From assembly GCA_964519505.1 (NCBI GenBank), contig CAZFJX010000005.1, positions 20,743-84,742 on the forward strand: a DNA stretch of 64,000 nt, given 5' to 3'. Under the pieces are notes generated by a model that saw only the letters and a list, made by a program, of their open reading frames with translations, was not told the origin of the DNA and did not search any database. Of the stretch, positions 428-8,620 are shown piece by piece. Each line of letters starts with the position of its first letter. Positions within the stretch are counted from its first letter, which is position 1. The DNA comes from an uncultured Desulfurococcales archaeon (GTDB lineage Archaea > Thermoproteota > Thermoprotei_A > Sulfolobales > CAZFJX01). The translations under genes and the position numbers were made by a program.

Positions 428-1463
428 ACTTAGCTACACCTAAGGCCTTGACCGTTAATAGTGAGGAAGTAAAGACTATAGGCATCGGTAGTAAAGTAAG
501 TTCTATTAGGTCATGAATGGGTAAGGTAGGTCTTAAAATGAATGTAAGCCCAACAAACCTACTTAACCATAATGAAGTATCGACTAACAAGACCCCCAAT
601 GAAATACCGAAAAGAACTCCTACACAACCCAGTATGAGTATGGCTGTAGGTATGGTCACGTAAGGATTTATGTCTGTGAACGTAGCTACAGTCTTTAGAT
701 AAGGCATTAACTCATTGATTAACTTATGAGTAACTAAGGCAGAAATGATTAAGTACAATATTAGGAATAGGTACAGCCATACCTTAGCTATATTTAAAAT
801 ATCCCTATTTAGTGAGGAGATCATTTTACTAAACAAGCCAGACTTAGTAATTACTGTGTCCTCGACGGATTTACCTAACGCGCCATATTCATAAATAATT
901 ACATAGTAATCACAATCTCTCGGCAATTCATTAAGAACTATGGTAATGGACGAATCCAGGAAATTATTAAACTTATGTATATTGCTGATTAAGTAAATTG
1001 TTTGACCTATTCTTAAGGATTCATTGATACTTAAGTCAAGTTCCTTAGCTAGTTCCTTACCTATAGATAGCGTATTAGTACTGAATTTTAGTAACTTAGT
1101 TAATGGGTGTTTAATCCCTGACGTACCGTTGAGGTATGTTATTAATGTATGTACCTCAGTATCATTATCAAGCGATACAATCCCGTAAGCTATACCTAGC
1201 ACTAAATACCCCACACCTAAACCCTTTAATCTACTTAGGGTCTTAGAGCATTGGTCAATAACCTTACATACCTTGACCTCATAATCCTCCTTAAAAGCTA
1301 AGTTACTGGCTAGGGCTTCGCTCTCGTAGGTTACGTAATTAATTAGTAAGTAAACCACCGTGAGTATCGATGCTAGTATGAAGAATGAGGCTAATATTGA
1401 TGTAAGTAAGCCCCTCCTAATTACTAATTTAATTATTAAGGCTGTATATTCACCTAAACCCAT
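417..1463 (-). CDS. Integral membrane protein with FtsX/MacB-like permease topology (N-terminal TM, ~200-aa external domain, C-terminal TM bundle)
   Basis: 348-aa ORF. N-terminal helix LLTSILASFFILASILTVVYLL; C-terminal helices VWLYLFLILYLIISALV, ILILGCVGVLFGISLGVLLV, LLPMPIVFTSSLLTV. The call rests on topology only, and no ATPase partner is adjacent. Confidence 0.45.
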   Translation of the reverse strand: MGLGEYTALIIKLVIRRGLLTSILASFFILASILTVVYLLINYVTYESEALASNLAFKEDYEVKVCKVIDQCSKTLSRLKGLGVGYLVLGIAYGIVSLDNDTEVHTLITYLNGTSGIKHPLTKLLKFSTNTLSIGKELAKELDLSINESLRIGQTIYLISNIHKFNNFLDSSITIVLNELPRDCDYYVIIYEYGALGKSVEDTVITKSGLFSKMISSLNRDILNIAKVWLYLFLILYLIISALVTHKLINELMPYLKTVATFTDINPYVTIPTAILILGCVGVLFGISLGVLLVDTSLWLSRFVGLTFILRPTLPIHDLIELTLLPMPIVFTSSLLTVKALGVAKYGS

Positions 1464-1493
1464 TCTAGCCCATATACTTAATGGTTGGAATAA

Positions 1494-2378
1494 TTAATGA
1501 AGTTTTAACTTACGTTTAATCTCCTTAATAAGTTCTCTTAATTCATTCTCACCGTAACCTCTGCGTGCGTACAGATACCTTTCGTAACTACTTATTAAGG
1601 TGTTAATTAGTTCGTAATGCTTACGCTCTAAGTGAGGTTCTAGAGCATGTAGGATTTCCCTTAATGTTAAGTCATCACTAAACTCAACGCCATACCTACC
1701 GCATAAGGACTTTAGTATGTCTCTAATCTCCTCACCCAAACTCTTAGGTTTAGATGGCTTAGTAACTATTACCTCTTCGGTCTCTATAGATTCACGAACC
1801 TCACTAGTACTTCCACCTACATACTCACTAGTTGTCCTTAGAGCTTCCTTAACCTCACTTACGCCTCCCTTAACCCTGTATATGTAGAGTGTTCTATCCT
1901 CAAGGAGCATCTTAACAGTGACCACCTTCTCGGGCTCCCAACCAGGTATTGGGTATGTGAGTGATATGACTTTAGCACCGGGCTTAGCGTACTTCTCAAG
2001 AAGCTCCTTAACTAGGGAAACACCTTTAGAGTCTAGGAACATGTATATGACGTCTGCGTAACTAACGTACTTATACTTGAATAAATCGCCATGAGTTATT
2101 ATTACCTTACCGTCAAGACCTACCTCCTTAACCTTAGCCCTGGCCTCCTTAACTAAATCCTCATTAATCTCAACACCTATAGCTAAAGCACCCCTCCTAG
2201 CTGCCTCAATAAGTATCCTACCATCACCACAACCCAAATCACAAAAAACCATGTTAGGCTTAATTTCAGCTAACTCCATGACCTTATCAATAACCTTCTT
2301 AGGGGTGGGTACGTACGGGACTATATACATGGGGTTATCGACCTCATATACAGGCGGGGGAGGTATAAATGTCCTCAT
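1494..2378 (-). CDS. Class I SAM-dependent methyltransferase with a charged C-terminal extension
   Basis: 294-aa ORF with motif I VFCDLGCGDGRILIEAARRG, followed by GVEINEDL and a post-I/II Rossmann pattern. The C-terminal ~120 aa is helical and charged, with no family I recognise. Confidence 0.8.
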   Translation of the reverse strand: MRTFIPPPPVYEVDNPMYIVPYVPTPKKVIDKVMELAEIKPNMVFCDLGCGDGRILIEAARRGALAIGVEINEDLVKEARAKVKEVGLDGKVIITHGDLFKYKYVSYADVIYMFLDSKGVSLVKELLEKYAKPGAKVISLTYPIPGWEPEKVVTVKMLLEDRTLYIYRVKGGVSEVKEALRTTSEYVGGSTSEVRESIETEEVIVTKPSKPKSLGEEIRDILKSLCGRYGVEFSDDLTLREILHALEPHLERKHYELINTLISSYERYLYARRGYGENELRELIKEIKRKLKLH

Positions 2379-2533
2379 TTCGTGTCAAGAAACAGTAAAG
2401 TATAGGTAGCTTAAAAACTTAAGCATACGTAGGTAGGTCATTCTTAAGGAGTAACTGATGTTGGTAGGGATTGATAGCGCGACATCAAACTTAAACCTTA
2501 TATAATTAAGTATGAAGCATATAATGACCTAAA

Positions 2534-2683
2534 TTGGTGTCCTTGAAGGAGAGAGATTACGAGTTTAAGTCCTTGGTAGAGTACATTCATAGAGTAACAG
2601 GTATTGATAAGGAAACTATAATTAAGATATTGGAGGCGCAGGAAGATTATTACCTACTTAAGCTGGAGACCTTATTAACGTAA
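2534..2683 (+). CDS. Possible small protein (48-49 aa), hypothetical
   Basis: Below the ORF-track cutoff. TTG 2534 / GTG 2537 to TAA 2681-2683 reads (L)VSLKERDYEFKSLVEYIHRVTGIDKETIIKILEAQEDYYLLKLETLLT. An A/T-rich TATA-like box (ttatataattaag, ~2506-2520) lies ~25 nt upstream, as expected for a leaderless archaeal mRNA. The composition looks like a real helical protein. Confidence 0.25.
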   Translation: MVSLKERDYEFKSLVEYIHRVTGIDKETIIKILEAQEDYYLLKLETLLT

Positions 2684-2736: not shown

Positions 2737-5196
2737 GTGTTAGCTTTGGAGAGAAGTAATGAGCTCACAAATATATTGAAAGTGTTAATGAATGAAGTTA
2801 ATATACAGATACTCACCGTATTAAAGACAGGTAGCCTCAATCCTAGGCAGATAGCCCGTGTTTTAAAGAGGGATGAAACCGATATTTCTAGGAAGTTAAA
2901 ACAGCTTGAGAGGGTAGGGTTAGTCACTAGTAGATGGGTTAGGCTAGGGAATAGGAATGTTAAAATATATAAGCTTAACATTGATGAGATAAGGATAAGT
3001 ATTTCTAGTAGCGGCTTAAAGGTCGAACTACGCACCGAGGATAACGTAACAACAAAGCACATATATATACTTTTAAGTAAGGTATTACGCGTTAAGATAC
3101 CTGAAGTCCCTAAGTTCATAAATAGAAGGAAAGAGTTAAGGCAAATAAACGAAAGTGGTAAGAACATCATATTAATCACAGGTATGCCAGGCATAGGTAA
3201 AACAACGTTAGTAGCTTACTACGTAAGAAACTACGTAAAAGATCCCGTATTCTGGCATAAGATAAGTGAATTCGATACGTTAGAATTAATCCTCTGGAGA
3301 TTAGCTGCCTTCCTAAATGGGCTAGGATTTAATGAACCTCTTGAATGCCTTAAGTTAAGTAATGTTGATTTAGGGGTTAAGATAAACTTATTACTCAACA
3401 TCATAGACGGTTTATCATGTGTTATTGTCTTTGATGATATACATAAATGTAAGGATAAGAGAATTCTTGAATTCATTAGGTACTTAATAGATAATTTAAG
3501 TAGCGCTAAATTAATTCTCATCTCAAGAGATAGACCTAAATTAACGCCCTTTAATAAAGAGAAAATACTGAACTTGACCCTCAAAGGATTTAATATTAAG
3601 GAGACCTATGAGTTGTTTAAGGCTAAAGGTATAGCGTTAAGGAATGAATACATTATTAGGTCCTATATGATTACGAAGGGGCATCCATTACTCTTAGTCA
3701 TACTTATAGACGCCTTACGTAGGGATAATCCTGAAGAGGTATTTAAGCACTTAATTAATGAGGACTTACCTAGCTTCTTCTGGCGTGAAATATATGAGAA
3801 GTTAAGTGATATAGAGAAATCTGTTATTAGGGTCTTAGCAGTAATTAAAGATCCACTAACACTTGATGAACTTCAAGAACTAATACCTAGAAAAGCCTTA
3901 CAACTCATCCTTTATTCACTCATTGATAAAGGCATAGTCGAGCATCAAGAAGATACCTACGTCCTTCACGATGTCATTAAGTCAATAATGCCTAACCTAA
4001 ACGTGTCTACCCAAGAGATTAATGAGTATTATGGTAGGTTAGGTAGGGCTTTATATGAGAAAGGCGGAGTTATTAATGAGTTAAAGGCCTTAAAATACTT
4101 CATTAAAGCAGGTGATGTTGATGCCGCCATTAATATACTTCGAGATAGAGTCAGGTTACAGAAGTATTCATATCTAGACTTTCTTGACTTCTATGCTAAA
4201 TTAATACATGACTTAGAGGCTATAGTGCCACCTCATTATGAGGTAGCTGAAGCTTACATAAAGTACGAGAAAAGCCTAATAGCGTTAGCTAAAGGCGACG
4301 TTGAGAAGGCCATACCGTTACTTTATGATGCTTTAAAAATATTCAAGAAGTTAGGGTTTAAGTTAGAGGTCTCCGAAACTTTATCGACTTTGGGTAGGGC
4401 ATTAACCGACGTTAAAGACTACGATAATGCATTAAAGTGCCTTAATGAAGGTATTAGACTTATTAAGGAAGTTGATGAAGAAAGTAAGATGCTTATCGAG
4501 TGGGGCCTATATGCAAACTTAGCTAAGTTATGGTCCTATGTAGGTGACTTAGATAAGGCTAAGGAGGTTGTGCTTAAGGAGTTAGAGATAGCTGAGAAGA
4601 TAGATGATTTAATGTATTATGCAACAACATTATTTCACTTAGGTAACGTATTGGAAATACGTAATGAACTCATAGAGGCTGAGAGGTATACTAAGAAGTC
4701 GTTAGAGATGTTCAAGTTAATAGGGTCTAACTATTACGTTGGGTTAAGTCACTTAGTACTTACTTACATATACTTAAAGCTAAGGAAGTTAGAGAAGGCC
4801 TTAAGACATGTGAATAAGTCTTTGGACACTTTAAGGAAATTATATGCAGGTGCATGGGTTCTTGAGGCATTAGCTCTTCGGTCATTAATATATTTTGAGT
4901 TGGGTAAGATGAAAGAAGCTGAGGCCGACAGTTTAGAGGCTATAGAGTTAGGTAAAAAGGTCAAGTACTATATGGTTGGGTATGCTAAGATAGTTTTAGG
5001 GACTATTAAGCTAACTAATGGATTGAGTAGTGAAGGGCTTAAGCTCATACGTGATGGGTATAAAGACCTTATGTACTTTAAGACTGATTTAGTGTTAATA
5101 CTTGAGTTCCTAATTAAAAATTTAAGGAGGTTAGGGTTTCAGGATGAAGCGAGGTTTTATGAATCAGTAATTAATAACCTAAATCTGACTAAGTAA
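2737..5196 (+). CDS. wHTH (ArsR-like) - STAND/NB-ARC-like P-loop NTPase - TPR repeat protein
   Basis: 819 aa, GTG start. N-terminal wHTH: ILTVLKTGSLNPRQIARVLKRDETDISRKLKQLERVGLVTSRW. Walker A ITGMPGIGKTTLVAYY; Walker B CVIVFDDIHKC; LILISRDRP; GxP-type motif ITKGHPLLLVILIDAL; winged helix EKSVIRVLAVIKDPLTLDELQELI. The C-terminal ~380 aa consists of TPR-like helical repeats (ALKYFIKAGDVDAAI, AKGDVEKAIPLLYDALKIFKKLG, DYDNALKCLNEGIRL, GDLDKAKEV...). Confidence 0.8.
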   Translation: MLALERSNELTNILKVLMNEVNIQILTVLKTGSLNPRQIARVLKRDETDISRKLKQLERVGLVTSRWVRLGNRNVKIYKLNIDEIRISISSSGLKVELRTEDNVTTKHIYILLSKVLRVKIPEVPKFINRRKELRQINESGKNIILITGMPGIGKTTLVAYYVRNYVKDPVFWHKISEFDTLELILWRLAAFLNGLGFNEPLECLKLSNVDLGVKINLLLNIIDGLSCVIVFDDIHKCKDKRILEFIRYLIDNLSSAKLILISRDRPKLTPFNKEKILNLTLKGFNIKETYELFKAKGIALRNEYIIRSYMITKGHPLLLVILIDALRRDNPEEVFKHLINEDLPSFFWREIYEKLSDIEKSVIRVLAVIKDPLTLDELQELIPRKALQLILYSLIDKGIVEHQEDTYVLHDVIKSIMPNLNVSTQEINEYYGRLGRALYEKGGVINELKALKYFIKAGDVDAAINILRDRVRLQKYSYLDFLDFYAKLIHDLEAIVPPHYEVAEAYIKYEKSLIALAKGDVEKAIPLLYDALKIFKKLGFKLEVSETLSTLGRALTDVKDYDNALKCLNEGIRLIKEVDEESKMLIEWGLYANLAKLWSYVGDLDKAKEVVLKELEIAEKIDDLMYYATTLFHLGNVLEIRNELIEAERYTKKSLEMFKLIGSNYYVGLSHLVLTYIYLKLRKLEKALRHVNKSLDTLRKLYAGAWVLEALALRSLIYFELGKMKEAEADSLEAIELGKKVKYYMVGYAKIVLGTIKLTNGLSSEGLKLIRDGYKDLMYFKTDLVLILEFLIKNLRRLGFQDEARFYESVINNLNLTK

Positions 5197-5256
5197 GAAT
5201 AATAGCCTTTAATACGTTTGAGTTAAAAATCTGAAATCATACTAAGCAAACCTTAA

Positions 5257-5646
5257 TTGAGTTCTGGAATCATGTTTCTTGGTGAGGGCATGTCTTCAGC
5301 GCTTAAGACAGTACTCTCAGACTTCACTCGTATTGAAGGCGTTAGAGGTGCTTGCATTATAAGTAAGGATGGCTTCATGGTTGAGTCCGTAATGCCTGTT
5401 GGTGGCATAGATCCTGATGCATTAGCAGCCATGATAGTCACGCTATTCGGTACTGCCGCTAGGATGGGTGAGGAGTTGAAGATGGGTAGTACTGAGTTAG
5501 TAACCATTGAGTTCATGAATAACTACGTACTTATTGAGGATCTAGGTGATGTTGTCTTTACCGTTATTGCTGAGAGGGCGGCATTACTCGGGAGAATTAG
5601 GTATGAAATGAAGAGGCAGAAGGATAGGGTAAGGGCCGCGCTTTAA
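5257..5646 (+). CDS. Roadblock/LC7 (MglB-like) domain protein
   Basis: 129 aa. IEGVRGACIISKDGFMVESVMPVGGIDPDALAAMIVTLFGTAARMGEELKMGSTELVTIEFMNNYVLIEDLGDVVFTVIAE matches the Robl_LC7 pattern. The true start may be ATG 5272 rather than TTG 5257. Confidence 0.8.
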   Translation: MSSGIMFLGEGMSSALKTVLSDFTRIEGVRGACIISKDGFMVESVMPVGGIDPDALAAMIVTLFGTAARMGEELKMGSTELVTIEFMNNYVLIEDLGDVVFTVIAERAALLGRIRYEMKRQKDRVRAAL

Positions 5647-5687
5647 GGCGAACATAAAGTCTTAAGCGTGGTGATGGGTGGTTACGC

Positions 5688-6257
5688 ATGGTTGAGGAAG
5701 TTAGTTTAGAGGAGATGACACGTAAGTACAGAGAGATTGCTGAGAAGGAAATGAGGGGTGAGAAGCCCTTAAGAGAGAGGGTTAAGGAATACACGACCAT
5801 TAACTTCCTAAACCCGCAAAGACCGTTCATGAGTAAGCAGAGTGCTGACGATACTAAATACGTAATTAACTTCAGGTTAGTTAGGTGGAGTGAGTTAGAG
5901 AGGATTGTTGGTTTAGGTGCTAGCAATACTTTATGGTATAACGCAGGTAAGAGCTTAGGTGAGTTAGCCGTTGAGAAAGGGCTTATTAAGAGTGTTGATG
6001 ACCTCATAAACTTCGTAATTAACCAGAGGATAGGCTTAGTTGATGTAATTAAGGAAAGCAGTAATAAGACTAGGATACACGTATATGAATGCATAACATG
6101 TTCAGGGATACCTAATATAGGTAGAGTAGCATGCTTCTTTGAAGGTGGGTTACTGGCTGGGGTCCTTTCTAAGTTAGTAGGTAAGTGCAGAGCTAAGGAA
6201 ACCCACTGCTGGGGTACTGGATATAGCTTCTGCGGTTTCGACATAATATTCCTTTAA
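5688..6257 (+). CDS. V4R (4-vinyl reductase-like) domain protein
   Basis: 189 aa. C-terminal Cys-rich V4R signature: YECITCSGIPNIGRVACFFEGGLLAGVLSKLVGKCRAKETHCWGTGYSFCGFDI. Confidence 0.75.
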   Translation: MVEEVSLEEMTRKYREIAEKEMRGEKPLRERVKEYTTINFLNPQRPFMSKQSADDTKYVINFRLVRWSELERIVGLGASNTLWYNAGKSLGELAVEKGLIKSVDDLINFVINQRIGLVDVIKESSNKTRIHVYECITCSGIPNIGRVACFFEGGLLAGVLSKLVGKCRAKETHCWGTGYSFCGFDIIFL

Positions 6258-6301
6258 CATCAATAACGTTGCATATCAATTAGGTTTTTGAGGCAACCAG
6301 A

Positions 6302-7012
6302 ATGGCGGTTAAAGAGGATTTGGTATCTAAGCTTATGGAGGTTTTAGACCTACTTAAGAGGCTAGATGGCGTGGATTCAGCAGTTCTCACGTATGAAGGG
6401 TTACCATTAAAAATACTTAATATGGATACTAGCGAGGCTGAGGCGTTATCAGCAATAATTTCTGAGGAGTTAGTTAGGTTAAGTAAGTACTCACATATAG
6501 GTAAGGTTAATTACGTAGTAATTAATAGGGATGGCATATCACTCTACGCTAGGATCGTAGATCCTAGGACTATGCTCATAGTGAACTGTGATTATGGGTT
6601 AATGGGCTTAATAAACAGCGTTGTTGATCAAGTAATTAACAATAAGGTAGTAAAGTGCTCTAACTGTGGATTTAACCTAACGCTTCAACCAATTAAATGC
6701 CCCAGATGCGGTAAGTCAATACCCCTCATAGCCCGCGTATGTCCGTTCTGTAAGGTATCTATAGATGCTAGGGAATGCCCCAATTGCGGTAAATTAGTAA
6801 CTCATGAAGGAACCTTAGTTAAGAAGAGTTACGCCCCGCTAGCGCTCTTTGGAGGCATAGGTGCAGGTACATTCATTGCTGACTTAATCATAGCTTACGG
6901 ATTAGGTCTTCTTGAGAGGGCAGCAAGCATATTAATACTTCCTGGAGTGATTTCAATTGCTTTAATAGGGCTAGGTATATATTTCTATAAAACCCAGTAC
7001 AGGATGTGGTAA
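6302..7012 (+). CDS. Roadblock/LC7-like domain fused to a double zinc ribbon and a C-terminal two-helix membrane anchor
   Basis: 236 aa. N-terminus: LKRLDGVDSAVLTYEGLPLKILNMDTSEAEALSAIISEELVRLS...VVINRDGISLYARIV. Four CxxC pairs: CSNCG...CPRCG...CPFCK...CPNCG. C-terminal helices: LALFGGIGAGTFIADLIIAYGLGLL and ILILPGVISIALIGLGIYFY. Confidence 0.7.
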   Translation: MAVKEDLVSKLMEVLDLLKRLDGVDSAVLTYEGLPLKILNMDTSEAEALSAIISEELVRLSKYSHIGKVNYVVINRDGISLYARIVDPRTMLIVNCDYGLMGLINSVVDQVINNKVVKCSNCGFNLTLQPIKCPRCGKSIPLIARVCPFCKVSIDARECPNCGKLVTHEGTLVKKSYAPLALFGGIGAGTFIADLIIAYGLGLLERAASILILPGVISIALIGLGIYFYKTQYRMW

Positions 7013-7079
7013 AGGGCATCCGTAGCTATTAAGTTAAAATTAAGCAAAGAAAAGCATTAATAGGGGCTAGGGAATCGCT

Positions 7080-7865
7080 ATGTTCCTAGCGAGAGGTAGA
7101 GTATTTAAGATTACTGATGCAAGGCATGAGGCCTTAGGGGAAGTTTTAAGGTATTTAATGAGGTTAAATAGTAATTTTAAGGTATCCTTTCATGACGTAA
7201 CTAGAGGTTACCTATATGAGTTACTCATGAGTAAAGACGCTATAGTTGCCTGCGCATGTAGGGATAATATAGGTAATGTATTCTTAGGTAAGGAATGCTG
7301 GGATAAAGTCATTAAGAGCAACATACTCGATATTGATGAAGGGATCATAGAGATTTACGAATTAACTGAAAGTGAGTTAGCCGTAAACTTAAGTGAATTA
7401 CCTGACTCTAAGTTACCTGAGGAGTACCCTATAATGATCCTCCCAGTAACTAAACCAACTGGGGTACCTAAGGTACGTAGAGAGGTAATTAGTGGGAGCT
7501 TAAGCGCACCTGATGATAGGTTCATTAGGAACTTCTCACTAAGTAAGGAGCTAGAAGACCCTGTTTATGTATCAAGAATACTGCTTTCATCATCACTACT
7601 TGAAACCTCAACACTAAATTCTGAGCTAATAATAGACTATCTTAGGATGCTTAATGAGAGATACCCCAATAAAACCATATATGTACTAATTAAAGATGAT
7701 GATGTAACGTCTAGAATTTTAGTAAATTATTCTTCAAGGACTATATCTCTTTACCTCTTGCTAGGTGACCGTGAATTTATGGGTTTTGAGGCGCTTAAGG
7801 AGTTAATTAAGTTAAGAAAGCAGTTAAGGGCTTACGCTTTCCTTGTACGTGAGGAAGGCCATTGA
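7080..7865 (+). CDS. Hypothetical protein; two weak PATAN/DUF4388-like repeats (tentative)
   Basis: 261 aa and last gene of the same-strand cluster. N-terminus GRVFKITDARHEALGEVLRYLMRLNSNFKVSFHDVTRGYLYELLMSKDAIVACACRD...FLGKECWDKVI and C-terminus IYVLIKDDDVTSRILVNYSSRTISLYLLLGDREFMGFEALKELI resemble the G-x-L...G-x-I-v-A...G-x-eA-l pattern. This is a pattern-level call only. Confidence 0.55.
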   Translation: MFLARGRVFKITDARHEALGEVLRYLMRLNSNFKVSFHDVTRGYLYELLMSKDAIVACACRDNIGNVFLGKECWDKVIKSNILDIDEGIIEIYELTESELAVNLSELPDSKLPEEYPIMILPVTKPTGVPKVRREVISGSLSAPDDRFIRNFSLSKELEDPVYVSRILLSSSLLETSTLNSELIIDYLRMLNERYPNKTIYVLIKDDDVTSRILVNYSSRTISLYLLLGDREFMGFEALKELIKLRKQLRAYAFLVREEGH

Positions 7866-8620
7866 GCTACTGAGTATGGGCAGAAGTACCCGATGTTTAA
7901 GAATTCCTTAAACGCTCTCTTAAGGATGGTATAAGCACCTTTAGCTGAAACACCATATATCACCCCTACCTTACCTTCTTTAAATACTTCATTAATGATG
8001 CCGTAAATGGTTTTATTGACTATAGCACTACCTGTTATCAATATAATGTCAACATATTTAATTAACTCATTATTCTTGAAGCCGTCAATAATCCTTACCC
8101 CATACTTTACTTTACCAATAACGTCTTTATTCAAATCAGTAACGTACACGTTACGGAACCTACTTACTAATGCCTTAACGTGACCTGGGTGGTAGCCTAT
8201 GTGAAGAATACTTACGTTACTACCGTAACTTCTTAGTAAGTAATCAGCTAATTCCACACCACATAACTCAGGTTCCTTACCTTTACAATGTGTGCCCCCA
8301 TCTATAATACCTAACATAGTTAGTAACGCGTTAAGGGTAGCAAAAAATATGCCTCTCCACCCGATATTACCTAGGTCAAGGTCATTAACTAACCTACTTA
8401 AAGTACTCTTGTAACTTAGTGGGTAAGGAGTGAATGCATGACCTTTAAAACCATTAATTTCACACTCAATGAGTACTTCAGGACCCCTAATTAAGGCATA
8501 CTCGTCCGACGGTAAGTTAAGCTCCTTACCTAACCTAGACCTACAGATAATTGACTTTCTAAGTAAGTCCCTCTTAACTAGTAACTCCTTAAACGAATTA
8601 AGTAAGTACTCATCATACAT
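7832..8620 (-). CDS. DUF364-like Rossmann-fold protein (putative metal-chelation domain family)
   Basis: 262 aa. ...ILHIGYHPGHVKALVSRFRNVYVTDLNKD...KYVDIILITGSAIVNKTIYGII resembles the DUF364 C-terminal motif (xITGstlvNxT). It is last in the same-strand ABC operon, 4 nt from the ATPase gene. Confidence 0.5.
   Translation of the reverse strand: MYDEYLLNSFKELLVKRDLLRKSIICRSRLGKELNLPSDEYALIRGPEVLIECEINGFKGHAFTPYPLSYKSTLSRLVNDLDLGNIGWRGIFFATLNALLTMLGIIDGGTHCKGKEPELCGVELADYLLRSYGSNVSILHIGYHPGHVKALVSRFRNVYVTDLNKDVIGKVKYGVRIIDGFKNNELIKYVDIILITGSAIVNKTIYGIINEVFKEGKVGVIYGVSAKGAYTILKRAFKEFLNIGYFCPYSVAQWPSSRTRKA

Follow-up and report, generated by a model that had tools for sequence, protein, structure and literature searches.

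A conserved crenarchaeal Roadblock/V4R gene module and its lineage-specific STAND-type neighbor

We analyzed 64,000 nt of DNA from an uncultured Desulfurococcales archaeon (contig CAZFJX010000005.1, positions 20,743 to 84,742; hereafter the window), in which five consecutive genes, g1 to g5, lie on the forward strand at positions 2737-7865. They encode a STAND NTPase with a winged helix-turn-helix (wHTH) domain (g1), a Roadblock/LC7 protein (g2), a V4R protein (g3), a second Roadblock protein joined to zinc ribbons and a membrane hairpin (g4), and a two-domain protein of a divergent family (g5). An earlier note on this DNA had described the five genes, all of which are present on the plus strand as it said, as an operon led by the STAND gene. 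We find that the conserved unit is g2-g5, with g2, g4 and g5 as its core, and that g1 is a lineage-specific neighbor. The best explanation of the locus, to which we assign a probability of roughly 0.55, is that it holds two separable units: a stand-alone STAND regulator, g1, and a conserved crenarchaeal, membrane-tethered Roadblock platform encoded by g2-g5.

Contigs of the window type (L001-L006) carry the same five genes within the same flanks, with proteins 94-100% identical; they represent the same species and give no independent support. Only in such near-identical contigs does g1 adjoin g2-g5. Independent module loci were collected from contigs encoding g5 relatives and from a metagenome scan seeded with the Roadblock alignment. 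The order g2-g3-g4-g5 is found in L030 (with L026-L028 of the same type, L026 and L027 showing g4-g5) and in L031 (gaps of 12, -17 and 6 nt), the gaps across L030 and L031 ranging from about -17 to +46 nt. Other versions are g2-g4-g5 in L024/25, from a Thermoproteota metagenome-assembled genome (MAG; gaps of 18 and 7 nt), g4-g5-g2 in L023, g4-g5 in L014, and g2-g3 in L029, where the contig ends. In all module loci that have g5, it lies immediately downstream of the g4 ortholog. A variant in L033 (1270-3016) has a Roadblock gene, a gene for a 174-aa protein and a g4-like Roadblock-zinc-ribbon-transmembrane gene, without g5; the 174-aa protein, which occupies the V4R position, has no V4R or other Pfam match. 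No g1-type gene occurs at the module loci with upstream sequence (L023, L024/25, L030, L031, L033 and L034), and the upstream neighbors vary: a GH130 gene in L031, ferredoxin/hydrogenase-like genes in L024, and in L030 a divergent gene (1369-2586, minus strand) for a 404-aa ATPase_2 ("archaeal ATPase") protein with an MCM_C winged helix, separated from the g2-g5 operon by a 206-nt spacer. The ATPase_2 family is abundant in Crenarchaeota.

Homologs of g1 in the protein database are ~800 aa long, have the same architecture and share 24-32% identity with it. Their contexts were inspected in five lineages (P0004 in L007, P0005 in L008, P0007 in L009-11, P0008 in L012 and P0009 in L013), and in none of the five does a Roadblock, zinc-ribbon or g5-like gene stand beside the homolog. 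L007 alone has a V4R gene, distantly similar and ~4 kb upstream. Because g1 is absent from the other module loci and the module genes are absent beside g1 homologs, we conclude that g2-g5 form the conserved unit. Synteny of all five genes thus does not extend to g1, which no other lineage shares at this position, and does hold for g2-g5, which recur in several crenarchaeal lineages; the proposal that the STAND gene leads the operon is not supported, the adjacency being confined to one species.

Conservation of the module proteins between the window and the other lineages falls into two tiers, g2 (64-76% identity) and g3 (70-75%) against g4 (29-36%) and the fast-evolving g5 (26-34%). The g2 product (5290-5646, plus strand) is a 118-aa, single-domain protein that matches Robl_LC7 at 2.4e-15 in Pfam, and its identity range covers orthologs in L023, L024 and L029-L031. 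The g3 product (5688-6257, plus strand; 189 aa) matches V4R at 1.5e-14 (54.2 bits, cutoff 31), and its Cys cluster, CxxC...C...C, is kept in the orthologs, with the identity range taken over L029-L031; in L023 and L024/25 the operon has no g3. These profile matches agree with the canonical Roadblock/LC7 and V4R assignments made earlier. Since g2 and g3 are highly conserved in lineages that lack g1, their conserved partner is not g1.

The g4 product (6302-7012, plus strand) begins with a Roadblock domain at about residues 9-100. The family of this domain aligns with the g2 family at an hhalign probability of 94.8% (E 5e-8, 92 columns), and reciprocal family hidden Markov model (HMM) matches between g4 N domains and Roadblock proteins were obtained in every locus. 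The g4 protein itself has a weak Pfam match to Robl_LC7 (2e-3), and Robl_LC7 is not among the best 25 of 55 Pfam families for the g4 family consensus. Residues 113-172 match DZR/zinc ribbons in Pfam; the four CxxC pairs at residues 119-162 make up two zinc ribbons, and their Cys columns are invariant in the family. Hydropathy places two hydrophobic helices at residues ~180-204 and 208-229, forming a C-terminal membrane hairpin. The fusion of a Roadblock-like domain to four CxxC pairs and a two-helix anchor, as first read from the sequence, is therefore borne out by hhalign, DZR matches and hydropathy.

The g5 product (7080-7865, plus strand; 261 aa) has no match in Pfam or NCBIfam, and the family consensus sequences, taken for the N and the C domain, match neither DUF4388 nor DUF2226 in Pfam. 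Word-indexed homolog searches with g4 and g5 yielded near-identical proteins only; for the g5 family an exhaustive HMMER search was needed, and this recovered 17 distant relatives. P0029, the syntenic ortholog in L030 (E 4e-6 with g5), passes DUF2226 (PF09987; 33.1 bits, cutoff 22), with a DUF2226 E value of 5e-8 for a family member. Matches to DUF4388 (PATAN, PF14332) are weak and below the cutoff: 0.0046 for one of 18 relatives, 0.082 for the ortholog in L030. Aligned, the family members share two domains joined by a variable, often Pro-rich linker. The AlphaFold2 model of g5 (predicted local distance difference test score, pLDDT, 87.5) has alpha/beta domains at residues 1-117 and 147-256 and a disordered linker at 126-144, each domain having a core of helix, three-strand meander, helix and strand. 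No sequence similarity between the N and C domains was detectable by hhalign; a PDB sequence-profile search with g5 returned nothing, and a PDB fold search was uninformative. The size of the N domain (~115 aa) and its order of helix, three strands, helix and strand agree with those of PATAN. The PATAN-like repeats proposed for g5 thus find no match in g5 itself, and the weak DUF4388 scores of its relatives are a suggestive lead. We consider g5 possibly a member of a divergent family related to the archaeal DUF2226, and possibly a tandem PATAN-like adaptor. Its link to DUF2226 and PATAN-DUF4388 is the family member above the DUF2226 threshold; it differs from them in that g5 and the family consensus match neither model, and it is set apart by its two tandem domains with a linker that varies. 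DUF2226 is not mentioned in any paper of the searchable literature.

The neighboring gene g1 (2737-5196, plus strand) encodes an 819-aa protein with an ArsR/TrmB-like wHTH at residues 17-67 (matches to TrmB, 35.7 bits against a cutoff of 25.6, and HTH_20). Residues 134-342 match AAA_22 (42.2 bits), AAA_16 and NB-ARC (32.6 bits, cutoff 23.5; profile positions 16-220 of 248), with the motifs GMPGIGKT, VIVFDD and GHPLLL, and residues ~450-745 match TPR_12 (6.9e-22) and TPR_MalT repeats (7.9e-11; 42.3 bits, just under the cutoff of 45). Partial NCBIfam matches to MalT and AfsR were also found. The protein has the features of the NB-ARC clade of STAND proteins, namely an NTPase module including the helical ARC region, a C-terminal repeat sensor and a DNA-binding effector, so that the wHTH-STAND-TPR architecture first proposed is upheld by both databases. 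In g1, as in MalT, AfsR (SARP-NB-ARC-TPR) and GutR, a STAND NTPase is combined with a TPR sensor and an HTH that binds DNA; in place of LuxR or SARP, however, g1 has an ArsR/TrmB-type wHTH at its N-terminus, and it is archaeal. The best reading is that g1 is an archaeal counterpart of MalT/AfsR-type regulators, and its domain matches indicate that it is probably a stand-alone, ligand-switched transcription regulator. Candidates for its regulon are the divergent methyltransferase operon and the downstream module, singly or together.

P0007, P0008 and P0009 (L009-L013) diverge from pyridoxal phosphate (PLP)-dependent Cys/Met-metabolism or aminotransferase genes (Cys_Met_Meta_PP, Aminotran_1_2, TusA, PALP), a hint that sulfur amino-acid metabolism is under the control of this family of regulators; the divergent neighbor of g1 in the window is an S-adenosylmethionine (SAM)-methyltransferase gene. 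In L007 (12651-13949) and L009 (12597-13778), TnpB/Cas12f-like (Cas12f1-like_TNB) genes are found no more than ~4 kb from the STAND homologs, which suggests that g1-type regulators occupy variable regions visited by mobile elements.

The two units are separated by an AT-rich spacer of 93 nt (5197-5289). The maximal open reading frame (ORF) of g2 opens at TTG 5257; the true start is ATG 5290, because every homolog keeps the N-terminus MSSAL and the sequence just before this codon contains a Shine-Dalgarno motif, GGTGAGG. Public gene calls for g2 disagree (118 or 124 aa). With the start at 5290 the g1-g2 gap is 93 nt instead of the 60 nt given earlier; the other gaps, 41, 44 and 67 nt, were correct. 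The spacer contains TATA-like boxes (TTTAATA, TTAAAAAT and CTTAATTG) in addition to the Shine-Dalgarno motif. Upstream of the Roadblock gene, all lineages have a Shine-Dalgarno-like GGTG/GAGG and, 30-45 nt before the start codon, a TATA-like box, and the window spacer carries the same elements as the leaders of loci in which Roadblock is the first operon gene. By its sequence, the spacer suggests a candidate independent promoter and leader, and the g2-g5 operon probably has its own promoter.

No ORF with a P-loop and an NKxD motif was found in the 64-kb window, which confirms that no small GTPase lies in or next to the cluster. The other P-loop ORFs of the window are an AAA_28 protein, an adenosine 5'-phosphosulfate kinase, a 138-aa ORF without a Pfam match and, by P-loop motif, ABC-type proteins. 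The flanks of ~8 independent module loci (including L023-L033) likewise hold no GTPase-like ORF, and homologous clusters in at least seven other module lineages have no GTPase beside them; within the distance of about 4 genes used in PMC4316618, neither the window nor L023-L033 encodes a small GTPase of the Ras superfamily. Among MglB homologs, 328 of 749 (44%) are orphans without a coupled GTPase, none of which had been characterized as of the 2014 survey (PMC4316618).

Distant relatives of g5 point to type IV pilus-like machines. Because of its divergence, the full g5 alignment could not be used as the seed of a genome scan, and a tighter subset retrieved a single, distant branch, marked by an "ECIDP" motif, a length of ~300 aa and a Pro-rich linker, in L015-L022 (Ignisphaera, Desulfurococcaceae and other Thermoproteota MAGs). 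These contigs share a conserved locus (e.g., L017:1755-12946) with a T2SSF (TadC/PilC-like) gene, a T2SSE ATPase with PilB3_C, a ~1,200-aa secreted PEGA/CarboxypepD_reg protein, a ~137-aa coiled-coil protein, the g5-like gene, a 110-130-aa helical protein and, frequently, a KaiC-family ATPase. These genes look like the accessory set of a type IV pilus-like system, one that has apparently not been described. Roadblock genes of arCOG02603 are frequent in archaeal type IV pilus loci (PMC4858521), a bacterial PATAN domain binds the extension ATPase PilB1 and PilC (bioRxiv 10.1101/2021.06.11.447907), and MglA/MglB genes are regularly found near PATAN genes (bioRxiv 10.1101/2021.06.11.447907; PMC4316618).

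In the two-unit explanation, we infer that a Roadblock heterodimer of g2 and g4 would form the core of a membrane-tethered platform. The V4R protein g3 would supply a small-molecule pocket stabilized by Cys/Zn and may sense a ligand there, and g5, with its two PATAN-like domains, would be the adaptor to a target. The P-loop NTPase that the platform would regulate or position would have its gene elsewhere. By analogy with these systems, the secretion ATPase (PilB/FlaI-type) of a pilus-like machine, or a KaiC-type ATPase associated with it, seems a more likely partner than a small GTPase, because GTPases are absent from the module loci and reported in few Crenarchaeota, and because g5 relatives and archaeal Roadblock genes associate with type IV pilus loci. 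In its most specific form, in which a GTPase-independent, Ragulator/TRAPP-like assembly of a membrane-anchored Roadblock heterodimer, a V4R (Bet3-fold) subunit and a tandem PATAN-like adaptor controls a non-GTPase NTPase (e.g., PilB/FlaI- or KaiC-type) of a type IV pilus-like machine upon binding a small molecule, the proposal is speculative and we hold it with low confidence. If it is true, Roadblock/V4R platforms of TACK archaea served NTPases of other kinds either earlier than small GTPases or without any tie to them.

Several observations weigh against the two-unit explanation and the target proposed within it. The P-loop and wHTH gene beside the operon in L030, which is unrelated to g1, could reflect a recurrent NTPase-wHTH link or chance. 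In the window, no obvious terminator separates g1 from g2-g5 on their common strand, and read-through co-transcription is possible in this species. Neither g5 nor its family consensus matches PATAN in Pfam, and a g4 structure prediction from a 2-sequence alignment was of too low confidence to be used (pLDDT 46.6). No type IV pilus, KaiC or GTPase gene is found near the module in the window, L023, L024, L030 or L031, and the target is drawn solely from distant (~25% identity) g5 relatives and from analogy with the literature.

A rival explanation is a single system of five genes, in which the Roadblock, V4R and PATAN-like proteins would act on the STAND NTPase g1 in the manner of GTPase-activating proteins (GAPs) or guanine nucleotide exchange factors, with the wHTH as output. 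Besides the shared strand, the short gaps, the lack of a T-run terminator in the g1-g2 spacer and the L030 arrangement, this model can cite g1 as the sole regulatory-type NTPase in 64 kb, and the original proposal for Roadblock proteins was that they regulate NTPases in general (Koonin and Aravind 2000, as cited in PMC4316618). However, its central adjacency is limited to one species, with a g1-type gene in 0 of about 7 other module lineages and a Roadblock, zinc-ribbon or g5-like neighbor in 0/5 g1-homolog lineages; g2 and g3 are strongly conserved across lineages without g1, and the spacer contains promoter-like elements. Synteny and this conservation disfavor the STAND switch under Roadblock/V4R control that the earlier note envisaged, and we regard it as improbable. 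Less probable still is an Avs/NLR-like anti-virus surveillance system, an analogy prompted by the STAND and TPR architecture of g1 and echoed by weak local PADLOC matches (P-loop, Csa3-like wHTH, TPR). At the level of whole systems, PADLOC matched g1 to neither Avs nor anything else, and g2-g5 gave no match of any kind. An HTH takes the place of a nuclease, protease or other toxic effector, and the flanks are of housekeeping type; we consider a defense role very unlikely.

Two further explanations have somewhat more in their favor, and we regard each as possible though doubtful. If g1 were a local transcription factor for g2-g5 in this lineage, neither regulated by the Roadblock module nor part of it, its wHTH and its place 93 nt before g2 across a promoter-like spacer would be accounted for; transcription-factor genes commonly adjoin their targets, and the varied neighbors at the other module loci fit lineage-specific regulators. 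Yet no operator-like k-mers common to the g1 upstream region and the g1-g2 spacer were found above shuffle expectation, and the divergent methyltransferase gene is an equally good target, given that P0007-P0009 diverge from PLP-dependent Cys/Met genes. Alternatively, g2-g5 may be a classical MglA/MglB-like module whose GTPase acts in trans from elsewhere in the genome, of which 64 kb is covered here. Roadblock/MglB is the cognate GAP of MglA, bacterial PATAN genes lie near MglA/MglB, and multi-copy Rup group 2 GTPases occur in some Crenarchaeota (PMC4316618). Against this stand the GTPase-free flanks of the ~8 independent module loci, the report of small GTPases in few crenarchaeal species only, and the large uncoupled fraction of MglB homologs (PMC4316618). 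The explanation we prefer remains that of a stand-alone g1 beside a conserved g2-g5 platform.

Comparison with known systems supports the kinship with GTPase-associated Roadblock/PATAN modules that had been suggested for the cluster. The module resembles MglA/MglB systems (with MglC and PATAN proteins) in its Roadblock/LC7 protein, its second Roadblock paralog (cf. MglC), its adjacent PATAN-like protein and the type IV pilus link suggested by relatives. It differs in having no MglA-type GTPase nearby in any lineage, in the fusion of one Roadblock protein to zinc ribbons and a membrane hairpin, in its V4R subunit and in its archaeal host, the polarity modules being bacterial. Like the Streptomyces conservon (CvnA-D), it is an operon for several proteins, associated with the membrane and centered on a Roadblock protein of MglB type; however, the Roadblock component is the only one of the conservon that is present, there being no histidine-kinase-like CvnA, DUF742 CvnC or CvnD GTPase, and the membrane anchor is on the Roadblock protein itself. 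Membrane-tethered Roadblock dimers recall Ragulator (LAMTOR) and the V4R/Bet3-fold subunit recalls TRAPP, here combined in one operon, but neither a Rag or Rab GTPase nor a longin subunit was identified; the likeness is one of analogy, with no evidence of common descent. By analogy, then, the g2-g5 module may be functionally closest to the polarity modules of MglB, MglC and PATAN proteins, and in the folds that make it up it resembles Ragulator/TRAPP scaffolds. V4R has been proposed as the ancestor of Bet3 (PMC2253512); the V4R paper of Podar 2008 does not discuss Roadblock or GTPase neighborhoods. No description of an operon of Roadblock, V4R, Roadblock-zinc-ribbon-transmembrane and DUF2226 genes was found in the searchable literature, in line with the earlier statement that no system of this composition had been described, and the arCOG supplementary tables may list parts of it.

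The g2-g5 module is a defined and conserved case of an orphan Roadblock protein with clear partners: an anchored second Roadblock protein, a V4R protein and a PATAN-like adaptor. It makes the question of what GTPase-less Roadblock proteins regulate experimentally approachable in Crenarchaeota, and it unites in one operon of a TACK archaeon the Roadblock and V4R/Bet3 folds from which eukaryotic Ragulator and TRAPP are built. As an independent regulator, the STAND gene is a caution against inferring function from adjacency in a single genome.

The flanking genes are of housekeeping type (methyltransferase, ABC transporters, ThiC) and form no defense island. On the left, the SAM-methyltransferase gene (1494-2378, minus strand) is separated from g1 by a 358-nt intergenic region containing a 49-aa ORF (2534-2683, plus strand) that is called as a gene in several public contigs. 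Pfam gives no match for this ORF, which may be spurious or a small regulatory peptide. On the right, a DUF364 gene (7832-8620, minus strand) is convergent with g5, with an ABC transporter operon beyond it. If the longest DUF364 ORF is taken, the 3' ends of the two genes share 34 nt (7832-7865); in some gene calls DUF364 is cut to 253 aa.

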